From positions 186,001 to 224,867 of the forward strand of contig BAAIJX010000038.1 of NCBI GenBank assembly GCA_054600435.1: 38,867 nt of DNA. The letters run 5' to 3'. Under the pieces are notes generated by a model. The model was not told where the DNA came from. It worked only from the letters and a program-made list of their open reading frames with translations, and made no database searches. Both the position numbers and the translations under genes were made by a program. This document shows, piece after piece, positions 5,159 through 9,002 of this stretch (its first letter is position 1; the number at the start of each line of letters is the position of its first letter). This stretch comes from Neophaeotheca triangularis (lineage: Eukaryota).

Positions 5159-8100
5159 TCACTTCTTCTTCCCAGTAACGGTCCCATTAACTTTACTCCC
5201 AAACAACAGAGAACTGCGGCTCTCTTGCCAATGCACCGTCAAGGGACTCAAATGCAACAACATAAGCGTACGGCTGGATTTCCCATTCGCGCTAACGGGA
5301 GCGCCGCCGAGGGAAGATTGGAGGAGATAAGTCAACTGCACGCACACATTAGTACAAACACTCTTCATTGCCTGTCTTTAGGGGTTCTCACCTTGGAATT
5401 CCGATAGGGAACATGCTCGGCACCTTCCCGCTTACTACCCAAACTGGCCACGACGTCGCCCAAACTGCTCAGACTCTTGTTGATGGCTTGAGTTTCCTTC
5501 ATCCGGTCGCCAGCGGCTCCGCTCTGTTTCAGCCGCTCGCTGCCAGCCAGGTCGACCAGGTTAAGGATTCCCTCTGAGCTTTCATTGGTGGTTGCACAGT
5601 GGCCTTTGAGCGTGAGGATGAAGACGCTGTGGCTGCGGGACGAGCGTTCGTTGGCTTTGGTGGCCGCGACGCGGCGGTTGCGGGAGGCGGTGTCGAGGAG
5701 ATTGGCTACGGCGTGGGAGGTGTATATTTTGGCTTGCTCGGATGAGTGGTCAGAGGGGGGTGCAGATCGGGAAGAGGGGTCTTGAGATTGGGTCGCTAGG
5801 GTGTCTGGGTCGGGGGACGCGTCTGTTGTTGTGGGAGGTGGCCAGAGATTTACCGACGAGAGGTTCGTGACGGTGGTTTTGCCCGTAATGGCATCGTGGT
5901 GGATTTCATGGCGGTCTTGCTTCTTGCCCCGGTTGCTGGTGTCGCTTTCGGTATCCCAGGTCTTGGCGTCGCCGAGGAGGTCATTGAGGGTTTCGTTGTA
6001 GACTTCGACAAAATTGGCTTCGACTTTGTATTCCCAGCCTTTACTCTTGAGTCGGAGCATTTCGGATAGGAGTAAGGAGATTGAGGATGGGATGATGCCG
6101 TTCTCTCCGCTCATACCAAACGTCTTGCCACTGCCTGTTTGGCCGTAGGAGAGAATTGATACGTTGTAGCCGTCAACGACGCTCTGAACCAAATCACGGC
6201 ACTCTTCAAAGACTTGATGGTTTGTCGAGTCGGGGCCGAACACACGGTCGAAGGCGTAAGGGTGCTTTTCATTCCGTTCCTTCCCGGTGGCTGAGAAGGT
6301 TGTGGGTGCGTGGACGACCATTTCCTTGCCCCCATCCAGAGTATCACGGTCCGGGTACTCTACGCGTGCTGGATCGGCTTCTCCATCTACAGACTGCAGA
6401 CGAGGGCGGATCCGAGCAAAGACACGGATATTGCCACGAAGCTCGAGAATTGTCGCATTGAGTTTCCGGCGGAGCATCTCTTCTTGTCGCAAAGTCACAA
6501 GAGTGTGCTCACGTTCGTCGATCGCCTCCTGAAGCTGCTTGCTCAAGTTGGTAAACTCGAGGCTTTGAGCTTCCTGATTACCTTCTAGGAAATGCGCTTT
6601 CGAAACGAGAGCAGTCTTCTCTTGATCCAACAGAGCTGCTCGGTTCTCGACGGAAGTGATTTGAGACCGCAGGCTTGATATCGTGGCGTTGGCAGCTTCA
6701 AGCTGCGATTCCAGACTTGCAATACTGTCACGCAGTCCTTGAACCTGGCTTGCCGACTCCTCTGCTCTGCCTTCTCCCGATCTTTTCAATTCGTCCAATT
6801 GACACTGCAAGCCCGCGACCTTGCTATCGTGCTCTGCCTGTGTCTCTTCTAGCTCTTCTCGATGCTTGTCTCGTAACTCGTCCAACTCTTTCTGTTTTGC
6901 TTCCTTCCAATCGTCCTTGGCGTCTTCGAGCTTCGTCTCCCAATTGAAGCTCTCCTTTTCATTTTCACGCAATAAACGCTCTACTTCCTTTTCTTGTTTT
7001 GCAAGAAGATCACTGACATGTTTTTCATGGCGTCGCTCAACATCCTCTACATCTCGCTCATGGTCTCGTCGAGCAGACCGTAGATCGGTCTCTTTCGTGT
7101 GGAGGTCACTGCGTGCCCGTTCGAGGTCGGAATTGTAGTCGCGGTTCGCGGTCGTGAGCTCTTGATTGGCTGTCTTGAGCTCTTTGTTGAGGTCTTTTAA
7201 TTCCTGGACTAATACATACATTAACATTGCTTTATCTCTCTTGATTCGCTTGAGTTTGACATACCTTGAGATTTGTAAAAAGCCAGAGATTCCTCAATTG
7301 CTTGCTTGGAGTCGGCGGCTGAGGAGAATTGATTCTTAAGATGGTAATACATGTGTTCCTGCTCGCAGTTAGACCCCGAAGCTACACTCTCGAATCCCCC
7401 TCCGCAACTCACCATGTCTTCGAGTCGGCCTTTGGTGTCCCAAGCTGGCAAAGGTGTAAGCTTCTCTTTCGTAAGAAACACGGGCAACTCATCCTTGCGC
7501 CTCGTGATAGCGGTGGGGGTCCGCAGTGGCGCAGCCATGGAGCCTTTGTGTTTGAGGGGCGAAAGGGTAGGGATGTGTGGAACAACTTGCAGAGACTGCG
7601 TGTGACGGAGCGAGGGGGTGCAAGAAAATTTGGGAATCTTTGAAGGGGAGACCTCCTCTCTGATGCGCTCGAGCGATGGGCGATGTTTTGGCACCGTCGC
7701 TTGTCCCGAGTGCTTGCGTGTTTCTTGTGGCGTGATATGGAGATTTGAAAAGGCCGTGTTTAAAGAAACATTGCGCACGTCCGATTGGGATGATGCAGTC
7801 TTCTCTGGTGAAGAGGTGAGGGCGTGAGGGGGAGGTTCCTCCTCAGCCGGCCCTGCAATCACCAGAGTGCGCTCTTGCGATGGGATATTTTGAGCATGGT
7901 GTTGAGACCTAGTGCTCTTGACTTGCGATTGTTGATGAAGATCCCCTTGAGTGCGTGTTTTGCGAAGGGTGATGAAGTGGTTGAAGGACAGGAGAGGTGT
8001 AGTACCTTTTCGTTTTCCCGAGACCCCAACATCAGGCTGCTCTTCCTCCGCGATAGCCCTGTTACTTGCTGCGCTCGGCGGTCTTGATCCGACGTGACGT

Positions 8101-8684
8101 GCTGATTGTTGACGACTGGGCTGGCGGGTGCTGGAGACGCTGTTGGTGCTGGCCGTGGAAACGTTTGACGTATTGCGATAACTGCTGAAGTTGCCGTGGC
8201 CGCGCGAGCCAATAGTTGCAGAGCTGCTGTCGGTGCGAGATACGCCTGACCTGGATGGTTGCGCCAGATGCGAACGTGGGGGGTTTATAGGCTCAGCGGC
8301 GCGCTCAGCAAGCGTCTTGCGCTTAGTCGGAGGCTCTGGCACTGCGAAGCGCGTGTTAGTGGCACTTCCGTAGTCATCGCTGAGCTCAGCACGCGCTTGG
8401 TAATCCACCTCGGGCTGCTGTTGATGTTGCGGCTGCTGGTCAGACGTACGGCCGGTAATTTTATGTTTGAACGCTGGCGGCGCCATTGATCGACCTCCGC
8501 CACCACCGCCGCCTCCTCCTCCTCCTCCTCCTCCTCCTCCATCGTCTCTTGCCGTGCGGGAGTTTAGATGGCTTTCTGTAGTTTCCAGCAGGCTGCGGTT
8601 CGTGGACGAGGCGGGGAGGCGCGAGGGGGGTTTAGGAAGGGCGGAGGGACGCATGTTCTCGAGCTGTGACGGCGTGCGGTCCAT
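5159..8684 (-). CDS. KAR3: Kinesin-14, C-terminal motor (Kar3/KlpA); exons 8684-8450, 8341-8006, 7444-7413, 7358-7265, 7208-5392, 5335-5159 (segment 8005-7445 may be retained)
   Basis: Basic tail, long coiled coil, neck ELRGNIRVFARIRP, P-loop YGQTGSGKT, switch I NERSSRSH, switch II LVDLAGSE, INKSLSSLGDV, HVPYRNSK/LTYLLQ. Introns: 8449-8342 (GTACGT..ACTAAC..CAG), 8005-7445 (GTACTA..CAG), 7412-7359 (GTGAGT..TCTAAC..CAG), 7264-7209 (GTATGT..TAG), 5391-5336 (GTGAGA..ACTAAT..CAG). Confidence 0.93.
8497..8541 (-). repeat. (GGA/GGC/GGT)n trinucleotide repeat encoding a poly-Gly tract in the kinesin tail
   Basis: Run of cct/ccg/cca triplets on + strand; about 15 Gly in the translation. Confidence 0.9.
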
Positions 8685-9002
8685 TTTTGCGTGCTGGACG
8701 AAGGCGTGGACGCGTTTAGATGGCGGAGATTACATGGATTGACGAGGGTTAGAGGAATACGATACAAGTAGCTGCTGCTGCTGTTGCTGCTGTTGCTGCC
8801 ATCAGCAATCCAAGTGTGAAGATGCGGACGGTTAAGCTAGCAAGGCCATGTTTGGTTTGGTGTAAACAGACAGACGGGCAATGCCATGCCCCGAATTCCG
8901 GGGTAATTAGCCGGTCGAAGATCCATATCAGGTAAGCCCGCTTGATTGCTTGCCGAAGCCGGAATGCCGACAGGACGGGAAGGAACGACCGGACGTCACT
9001 CT

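Follow-up and report, generated by a model that had tools for sequence, protein, structure and literature searches.

We analysed a 38,867-nucleotide (nt) stretch of DNA from Neophaeotheca triangularis (contig BAAIJX010000038.1, positions 186,001 to 224,867; hereafter the window). Its minus strand carries a klpA/KAR3-like kinesin-14 gene, whose N-terminal tail contains a stop-free segment, 8005-7445, flanked by possible splice sites. From sequence comparisons we conclude, with a probability of roughly 0.7, that this segment is a conserved exitron, coding if retained and removable by splicing. The gene would then probably produce two proteins, a long one that bears a motif for binding microtubule tips and a short one that lacks this motif. 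This reading follows from three observations taken together: the segment behaves as coding sequence, the junction that its removal would create (K|AWD) is found in the mRNA of a relative, and synonymous sites show conservation of its splice signals.

The structure of the gene outside the segment was derived by homology and then verified by coordinates. The exons (8684-8450, 8341-7413, 7358-7265, 7208-5392 and 5335-5159) are separated by ordinary introns of 108, 54, 56 and 56 nt and, when joined by coordinates, give one open frame each for the long, retained form (1083 amino acids, aa) and the short, spliced form (896 aa). The large exon matches the Pfam families Kinesin (PF00225, 5e-71) and Microtub_bd (PF16796, 2.6e-50). 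The protein has the layout of a kinesin-14, with a C-terminal motor after a coiled coil and neck and an N-terminal non-motor tail; ELRGNIRVFARIRP is present, and GNIRVF is what we take to be the kinesin-14 neck motif. The 39 homologues of the tail are klpA or kinesin-like nuclear fusion proteins of 860-1130 aa from Mycosphaerellales- and Capnodiales-type Dothideomycetes. The features of the gene are as follows.

5159..8684, minus strand: coding region of the kinesin-14 (klpA/KAR3-like), ATG at 8684-8682, stop codon at 5161-5159
8450..8684, minus strand: exon 1, M1...KHKITG, then one base of a Leu codon; alignable with relatives as far as KHK..G
8342..8449, minus strand: ordinary intron 1, 108 nt, GTACGT...ACTAAC...CAG; a stop-free multiple of three, unconserved as protein
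8006..8341, minus strand: tail exon upstream of the putative exitron, LPEPPTKRKTLAERA ... SGKRK and the G of a Gly codon
7445..8005, minus strand: putative exitron, 561 nt, 187 codons, stop-free; coding if retained, removable by GT-AG splicing
7998..8009, minus strand: donor block, AAA G|GT ACT ACA, with no G at +5
7445..7478, minus strand: branch/acceptor block, TTT CTT ACG AAA GAG AAG CTT ACA CCT TTG CCA G
7629..7649, minus strand: SPSKIPK, with the SxIP motif SKIP at 7643-7632 overlapped by the S-P-x-K site SPSK
7734..7763, minus strand: LNTAFSNLHI, hydrophobic pattern L-x3-F-x2-L-x-[IL], resembling a nuclear export signal
7413..7444, minus strand: last part of the tail exon, (G)CT TGG GAC..., encoding AWDTKGRLEDM, the start of a conserved motif before the coiled coil
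7359..7412, minus strand: ordinary intron, 54 nt, GTGAGT...TCTAAC...CAG; a stop-free multiple of three
7265..7358, minus strand: small exon, EHMYYHLKNQF...FYKSQ and one base
7209..7264, minus strand: ordinary intron, 56 nt, GTATGT...GTTAAT...TAG
5392..7208, minus strand: large exon, with the coiled coil, the GNIRVF neck and the greater part of the motor domain; variable loop LWPPP...
5336..5391, minus strand: ordinary intron, 56 nt, GTGAGA...ACTAAT...CAG
5159..5335, minus strand: last exon, LTYLLQSSLGG...GKKK and the stop codon

The segment begins within a Gly codon (GGT, 8006-8004), so that its GT lies at 8005-8004 (AAAAG|GTACTA), and it ends with the AG at 7446-7445 (CTTACACCTTTGCCAG|CTTGGGAC). 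The initial annotation had placed a donor and an acceptor around exactly 187 stop-free codons here, had given the splice product as ...SGKRK|AWDTKGRLEDM, had listed SKIP (in VSPSKIPKF), SPEK, SPSK and SPLK in the retained peptide and had called the segment longer than the other introns. All of this is exact on the minus strand. It did not mention the 108-nt intron 8449-8342, although this intron, too, is stop-free and a multiple of three in length, as is the intron 7412-7359.

Coding sequence in the tail segment

By itself, an in-frame pairing of GT and AG has no value as evidence: with 30 GT and 62 AG, the tail exon (8341-7413) offers 325 pairs with a length of at least 45 nt and a multiple of three. 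The segment lies inside a 502-codon frame from stop to stop (8729..7221), with no stops in the frame of the gene and two and three in the others, and its GC content (0.54) is the same as that of the large exon. Its 187 codons stayed open in 23 of 20,000 mononucleotide shuffles, which argues that the openness is neither due to chance nor a property of ordinary non-coding DNA.

A phmmer-scored search with the window tail gave 39 proteins at E <= 1e-3 among 8000 candidates; these were aligned with MAFFT and inspected as 34 rows, with six near-identical Hortaea rows omitted. In the alignment of the window tail and its 39 matches, the segment is aligned throughout in the relatives, with conserved blocks, except in P0041. 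The blocks are GKRKGTP.LSFN, LRKTRT, RSQHSGS, SRN.SL.TAF..LSLTP, KHRPSLERIKEE.SPSKIPKFSCTP.LRH, TPSPLKHK, LRTP and MPVFLTKEKLTP..AWD. A 10-sequence alignment (A1) contains 38 invariant columns, including S-P-.-K-I-P-K. More distant retained forms, from outside the order (Elsinoe, Aureobasidium, Candelina and the fragments P0073 and P0080) carry the same series of motifs, keeping KRKG, SLS.AF..L, [TS]PS.IP[KR] and FL[TN][KR]....AWD. HMMER with the 424-aa tail as query against 1.84 billion representatives gave only 39 matches, mostly fragments from open reading frames (ORFs), and sequence search thus does not trace the segment beyond these classes.

For comparison at the level of DNA, we scanned metagenome contigs, where 73 pattern matches yielded nine confirmed loci (L001-L009). 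The segment is open in 9/9 of them, with 159, 180, 181, 185 or 238 codons between KRK-G and AWD, and all its length changes are in frame. Since the tail ORFs of L001 and L002 translate identically and L008 is only two residues away from L007, the loci represent about six lineages besides the window. Within conserved peptides, SPSKIPK among them, the choice of codon varies freely between taxa. We estimated the ratio of non-synonymous to synonymous substitution (dN/dS) from L004, L005 and L006 as an unsaturated trio, more distant pairs being saturated. It was 0.26-0.33 in the segment (dS 0.23-0.27), 0.06-0.11 in the upstream tail (dS 0.24-0.54) and about 0.045 in the motor exon (dS 0.48-0.59). 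Taken together, these comparisons indicate that the segment is coding sequence under purifying selection.

We also noted that dS in the segment was about half of that in the motor exon in the L004-L006 pairs, which hints at a wider synonymous constraint over the whole segment, beyond its ends.

Ordinary intron 1 serves as a control, since it indicates how a true non-coding intron appears in the same alignment. Most relatives are gapped there (KHKIPG|LPEP..KRKTLAERA), and five models (P0005, P0013, P0017, P0022 and P0029) read through it with an unrelated peptide. The read-through in these five public models is likely an annotation error.

Skipped forms and splice signals

We sorted 123 fetched proteins by regular expressions into 17 that skip the segment, 68 that retain it (with an SxIP-type motif) and 38 fragments or unsorted sequences. 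Fifteen of the skipping proteins are from Pezizomycotina and read KRK|AWD. They comprise Polychaeton citri, Zymoseptoria tritici 3D7, Acidomyces richmondensis P0122, P0081, Taxawa, Sarcosagium, Neodothiora, Macrophomina (two), Viridothelium, Neofusicoccum, Lasiodiplodia (two) and the transcript-like P0100 and P0101. The remaining two are Pneumocystis models, which have a contiguous KRPAWD and read KRPAWDTRGRLEDME.

The clearest evidence for splicing comes from P0081, a protein of 791 aa found only on Logan contigs, the longest of 2693 nt. It contains none of the ordinary introns (KHKIAG|LPEP, YKSR|VQEL, RNSK|LTYLLQ), reads GVMGKRK|AWDTRGRLEDME and is 100% identical to residues 51-841 of P0122, the annotated A. 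richmondensis protein. Twelve other fetched proteins, ten of them annotated models and two transcript-like contigs, share this junction. The Logan proteins are plain ORF calls, and P0125, a 604-aa genomic ORF of the same 90% cluster and 99.3% identical to P0081, breaks at the intron positions; because genomic ORFs stop at introns in this way, P0081 derives from RNA. Furthermore, a contig of 2693 nt is too short for 2373 nt of coding sequence, four introns and a segment of about 500 nt, which means that P0081 was spliced.

The skipped P. citri model, P0041 (...GVMGKRK|AWDTNGRL), had been considered an annotation slip; this explanation was dropped after a search with its junction region found the spliced P0081. 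The ORF P0061, with 93% identity to P. citri in the 42 aa that follow AWD, has an open segment, so that the P. citri model very probably removes an open, conserved segment. For the skip-model species, the genomic tail exon was represented only by near relatives of P. citri (P0061) and Neodothiora (P0073), and none was found among the fetched proteins for the Acidomyces, Z. tritici and Botryosphaeriales models. All the retained Logan, ENA and JGI proteins examined read through the last intron (RNSK-V...). They are therefore genomic ORFs and give no evidence for a retained mRNA.

Two further kinds of model were seen at this locus. In Hortaea werneckii (P0034-P0040 versus P0027), one homeologue is modelled without 32 residues before (A/S)WD, giving ...SLNGL|SWDTKGRL; the missing residues include the FLTKEKLTP block, and the gap reflects either a true loss of 96 nt or an intron call whose acceptor is near that of the putative exitron. 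P0085, P0086, P0087 and P0098, which are public or ORF-called proteins, begin with a Met in the last part of the segment (MPVFLTKE.., MPRYLTKD..) and so constitute a third, truncated annotation of the locus; a 699-aa Baudoinia panamericana model is an example.

These skipped forms raise the question of whether the segment could be an ordinary intron that is essentially always removed, its open frame being a relic and the long protein never made. All three transcript-like contigs (3/3) are of the short form, and the JGI and Z. tritici 3D7 models, which we take to be RNA-informed, skip the segment. The short form also fits Aspergillus KlpA in size and tail length, as given in passages of its description (770 aa, tail 1-152; PMC5216134). 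A plain intron, however, would not keep 159-238 open codons in about six lineages with only in-frame changes in length, nor would it show a dN/dS near 0.3 and near-invariant peptides with free codons, such as SPSKIPK. The true intron 8449-8342, open in the window, is unconserved or absent in the relatives, and a frame as long as that of the segment is rare among shuffles, as noted above. We therefore regard a constitutive intron as highly improbable.

In the window and all nine loci (10/10 DNA sequences) the donor Lys-Gly codons are AAA GGT, and the sequence CTT AC, from a Leu-Thr pair 11-20 nt before the acceptor, is invariant. Likewise, NCA|G is found in 10/10: CAG| is kept whether Pro, Ala or Thr precedes Ala/Gly. 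In the window, GCTTAC lies at 7461-7456, with CTTAC at 7460-7456 and A 7457 as the candidate branch nucleotide; a second CTTAC is at 7475-7471. No AG occurs between 7456 and the CAG at 7447-7445. For conservation statistics we used the window and seven loci, dropping L002 and L008 as duplicates, and also a six-taxon set without L005 and L006. In all eight sequences the stretch from CTTAC to CAG| is free of AG, as expected of a branch point after which the first AG is used; upstream of the CTTAC there is another conserved in-frame AG (AAA|GAG). Among the GT dinucleotides in 1164 aligned columns, that of the donor alone is conserved in 8/8 sequences, and the acceptor is one of five AG so conserved.

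The same two sites stand out in codon usage. Among pairs with the same residue, codons were identical in 0.44 of cases overall (3057/6905). When 288 windows of eight codons were ranked across the tail and large motor exon, the top 14 all fell on the acceptor or donor block, with codon identity of up to 0.87 and 0.76, respectively; the best window elsewhere, in the motor, reached 0.60. In the six taxa, 21 of 212 residue-invariant degenerate columns were also codon-invariant, six of them in the two blocks (AAA, GGT and ACA at the donor; ACG, AAA and CTT at the acceptor). Codons in the blocks are non-preferred ones (GGT 16%, CTT 13%, AAA 34%, ACA 25%), whereas the other 15 invariant columns mostly have the preferred codon. 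This pattern points to selection on the splice signals in all the DNA sequences compared, the window included.

The signals are weaker than those of ordinary introns. The donor has A or T at +5 in 8/8 taxa, though the Thr codon could give G, and ordinary intron donors of the gene family have G at +5 in 11/12. The branch-like sequence is CTTAC, as compared with CTAAC, CTAAT or CTGAC in ordinary introns.

Weak sites would also be expected if the 187 codons were a plain constitutive exon in N. triangularis, always translated, with the GT and AG incidental and the skipped forms either lineage-specific or artefacts of annotation. Retained forms do prevail over KRK|AWD forms among the 123 fetched proteins (68 versus 15), the segment is open and conserved in 9/9 loci, and 325 in-frame GT..AG pairs arise in this exon by chance. 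Most retained models, however, come from ORF-type or ab initio calling, which takes in any open frame. A plain exon also leaves unexplained why the only GT conserved in 8/8 sequences coincides with the junction in the mRNA of a relative, why synonymous conservation, followed over about 900 codons, has its two highest peaks at that junction, and why the conserved codons there are non-preferred. We consider it unlikely that the segment is a plain exon, though it is the likelier of the two simple alternatives.

The blocks might instead be conserved as a protein-binding or structural RNA element or as a translational pause, again with incidental GT and AG. On the acceptor side, the conserved block is rich in purines (ACGAAAGAGAAG) and reaches about 30 nt 5' of the AG, beyond a minimal branch and 3' splice site. 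However, the two blocks lie 480-710 nt apart at the exact junction of P0081, P0041 and P0084, the CTTAC-to-CAG stretch lacks AG in every sequence, and by eye there is no complementarity between the blocks in the relatives. Base pairing of donor and acceptor was considered because AAAGGT and ACCTTT pair in the window; it was rejected, as the pairing is not found in the relatives (by eye). We hold such a function to be very improbable, the least probable of these explanations.

The initial annotation had proposed that the segment is coding yet removable, with both forms under selection. This proposal agrees with the conservation of the protein, a dN/dS below 1, the spliced contig of a relative, ten further annotated models from relatives whose K|AWD junction is precisely the one predicted, and the conservation of splice signals at synonymous sites. 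The alignment of relatives that it had suggested as a check likewise came out in its favour, in the splice signals (10/10), the open frame (9/9 loci), the in-frame lengths and the dN/dS of 0.26-0.33.

Several points weigh against an exitron. The segment, at 561 nt, is 5-10 times the length of the ordinary introns of the gene, and its GTACTA donor and CTTAC are poor matches to those introns (GTRWGT; CTAAC/CTAAT). Only about six independent DNA lineages were sampled. No retained-form transcript contig was found, the three transcript-like contigs all being of the short form. The sole clear transcript case is Acidomyces, another genus, where the segment might be a plain intron, and many of the skipped gene models may stem from predictors guided by homology and not from RNA. 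Another function at the RNA level could underlie the synonymous conservation. Splicing in N. triangularis itself is predicted from its DNA, and binding of EB1, phosphorylation by cyclin-dependent kinase (CDK) and nuclear export are predicted from motifs.

The two predicted proteins

AlphaFold2, run on the 10-row alignment A1, gave a mean pLDDT (predicted local distance difference test) of 52.8 and a pTM (predicted template modelling score) of 0.13, with a single helix at residues 100-105 (LNTAFS). A Pfam search of the tail, including the segment, gave no match. We read the segment, on the basis of this model, as a largely disordered linker with short motifs. SPSKIPK is found in 58/68 retained-type proteins, and its S, P, K, I, P and K are column-invariant in A1; a [ST]-x-[IL]-P sequence in a basic, Ser/Pro-rich stretch of low pLDDT occurs as VSPSKIPKFSCTPSLRH. 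Of the motif sites listed in the initial annotation, those within SPSKIPK are thus nearly invariant and SPLK-type sites are common in the relatives' alignment, followed by T-P sites, but SPEK is not conserved. The LNTAFSNLHI region is conserved as SL.TAF..LS[LI] and contains the only predicted helix of the segment. It resembles the leucine-rich consensus of nuclear export signals and may act as one. An EB1 motif of the LxxPTPh type was sought in KLTPTPSF and rejected, as the spacing does not fit.

If the segment is an exitron, retention would place a 187-residue linker between the basic tail (...GKRK) and AWDTKGRLEDM, before the coiled coil. Removal by the spliceosome would use the weak donor (AAG|GTAC..), the branch-like CTTAC and CAG|, and would keep the frame, giving GKRK|AWDTKGRL. 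Because the 5' splice site is weak and the branch site departs from the consensus, removal would be partial or conditional in N. triangularis, which would then make both forms. The long form may bind EB1 through SKIP unless SPSK is phosphorylated, and the hydrophobic helix could possibly serve for its export. In the short form the SxIP motif, the CDK sites and the export-signal-like helix would be missing and the KRKAWDTKGRL tail would be contiguous; such a contiguous tail is also found in the skipped models from other orders, and Pneumocystis has it as KRPAWD.

A more far-reaching version, which we put forward tentatively and hold to be somewhat doubtful, is that the exitron is ancient (at least as old as Dothideomycetes, and reaching to the lichen-forming Candelina) and switches a regulatory cassette, giving a long cytoplasmic or plus-end form and a short form for the nuclear spindle. 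The cassette would consist of the SxIP site for EB1 with the overlapping CDK site, further S/T-P sites and the export-signal-like helix. Since it would be placed after the microtubule-binding tail and ahead of the first coiled coil, the cassette might in addition retune a tail-dependent switch of directionality of the KlpA type. Schizosaccharomyces pombe divides these roles between two genes, Klp2 and Pkl1, and budding yeast chooses by partner or by Cik1 isoform; in N. triangularis, in contrast, one gene with two splice forms may suffice. If this is true, fungi with a single kinesin-14 would separate plus-end or cytoplasmic from spindle roles by splicing, the same division of labour as that of the yeast paralogues (Pkl1/Klp2) or accessory subunits (Cik1/Vik1).

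The motifs have counterparts in characterized kinesins-14. According to passages of a study of S. pombe Klp2 (PMC3510020), the motor is loaded on plus ends by two SxIP motifs in its tail, which bind Mal3, and phosphorylation nearby blocks this. The N. triangularis protein would be similar in being a kinesin-14 with an unstructured SxIP tail, in which SPSK overlaps SKIP. In Saccharomyces cerevisiae, as described in parts of PMC7545359, Bim1-binding motifs (SxIP and KLTF) and localization and degron signals are in the N-terminal parts of Cik1 and Kar3. The likeness to Kar3-Cik1/Vik1 is that EB1-family motifs in N-terminal non-motor parts decide where a kinesin-14 acts, the difference being that budding yeast has motifs on accessory subunits whereas in the window they are in the motor's own tail, within a removable segment. 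Aspergillus nidulans KlpA (770 aa) is described in passages of PMC5216134 as having an N-terminal microtubule-binding tail (1-152) that acts as a directionality switch, coiled coils and a C-terminal motor, a layout like that in the window. The predicted short form (896 aa, with about 190 aa before AWD) resembles KlpA, and the long form would add 187 residues between tail and coiled coil. The term-matched passages of the KlpA report (PMC5216134) do not mention a long form or alternative splicing.

As an exitron the segment resembles those of Arabidopsis and human, for which passages of Marquez et al. 2015 (PMC4484396) describe weaker splice sites, lengths that are multiples of three, disordered regions, short linear motifs and sites of post-translational modification. 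The segment lies wholly within a continuous coding exon, through which the relatives' models and 9/9 loci read straight; it is bounded by GT-AG, stop-free, a multiple of three in length and exon-like in GC, with weaker sites. It appears to encode a disordered region that bears phosphorylation-type sites and short linear motifs. Its removal would give an internally deleted protein, again as in these passages (PMC4484396). A spliced-out mRNA is seen in a relative only (P0081, identical to A. richmondensis P0122). Unlike the exitrons of Marquez et al., the one proposed here is fungal, is conserved across several orders and has signals kept at synonymous sites. It would be a further exitron beside those of plants and human, in this case in a fungal kinesin-14. 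No exitron in fungi was described in the titles and abstracts of the open-access literature searched, full texts being outside that search. The same titles and abstracts contained no exitron or alternative splicing in a fungal kinesin-14, with supplements, full texts and subscription journals outside the search. Few examples exist of fungal alternative splicing that gives two functional proteins, and an order-spanning exitron with visible selection on its splice signals would, if true, be an unusually clean one.

The locus is annotated incompatibly across public genomes: the 123 fetched proteins include 68 retained models, 15 with KRK|AWD and several that start inside the segment. Such annotation distorts comparisons of orthology and domains.

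Other features of the gene

Exon 1 encodes 16 Gly codons in a row, (GGA)n/(GGC)n, at 8540-8493 of the minus strand, in the N-terminal tail. This run is found in no aligned relative and is probably a recent microsatellite expansion within coding sequence.

The 54-nt intron that follows ...RLEDM occurs in the window and L003-L006, but L001, L007 and L009 lack it and have a contiguous EDME.MY; the presence of introns thus varies among close lineages. In the motor domain, a loop of about 45 residues at about 5850-5720 of the minus strand (NLWPPPTTTDASPD...SEQAKIY) is variable in length, with LWPP conserved in the relatives and the remainder not.

Simple repeats lie 5' of the start codon on the minus strand, namely (GGTATA/GGTAGG)-like, (GCACT)n and (CAG/CAA)n at about 9200-9160, 9030-9000 and 8800-8770. 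The (CAG/CAA)n repeat stands immediately before the 5' end of the kinesin-14 gene.

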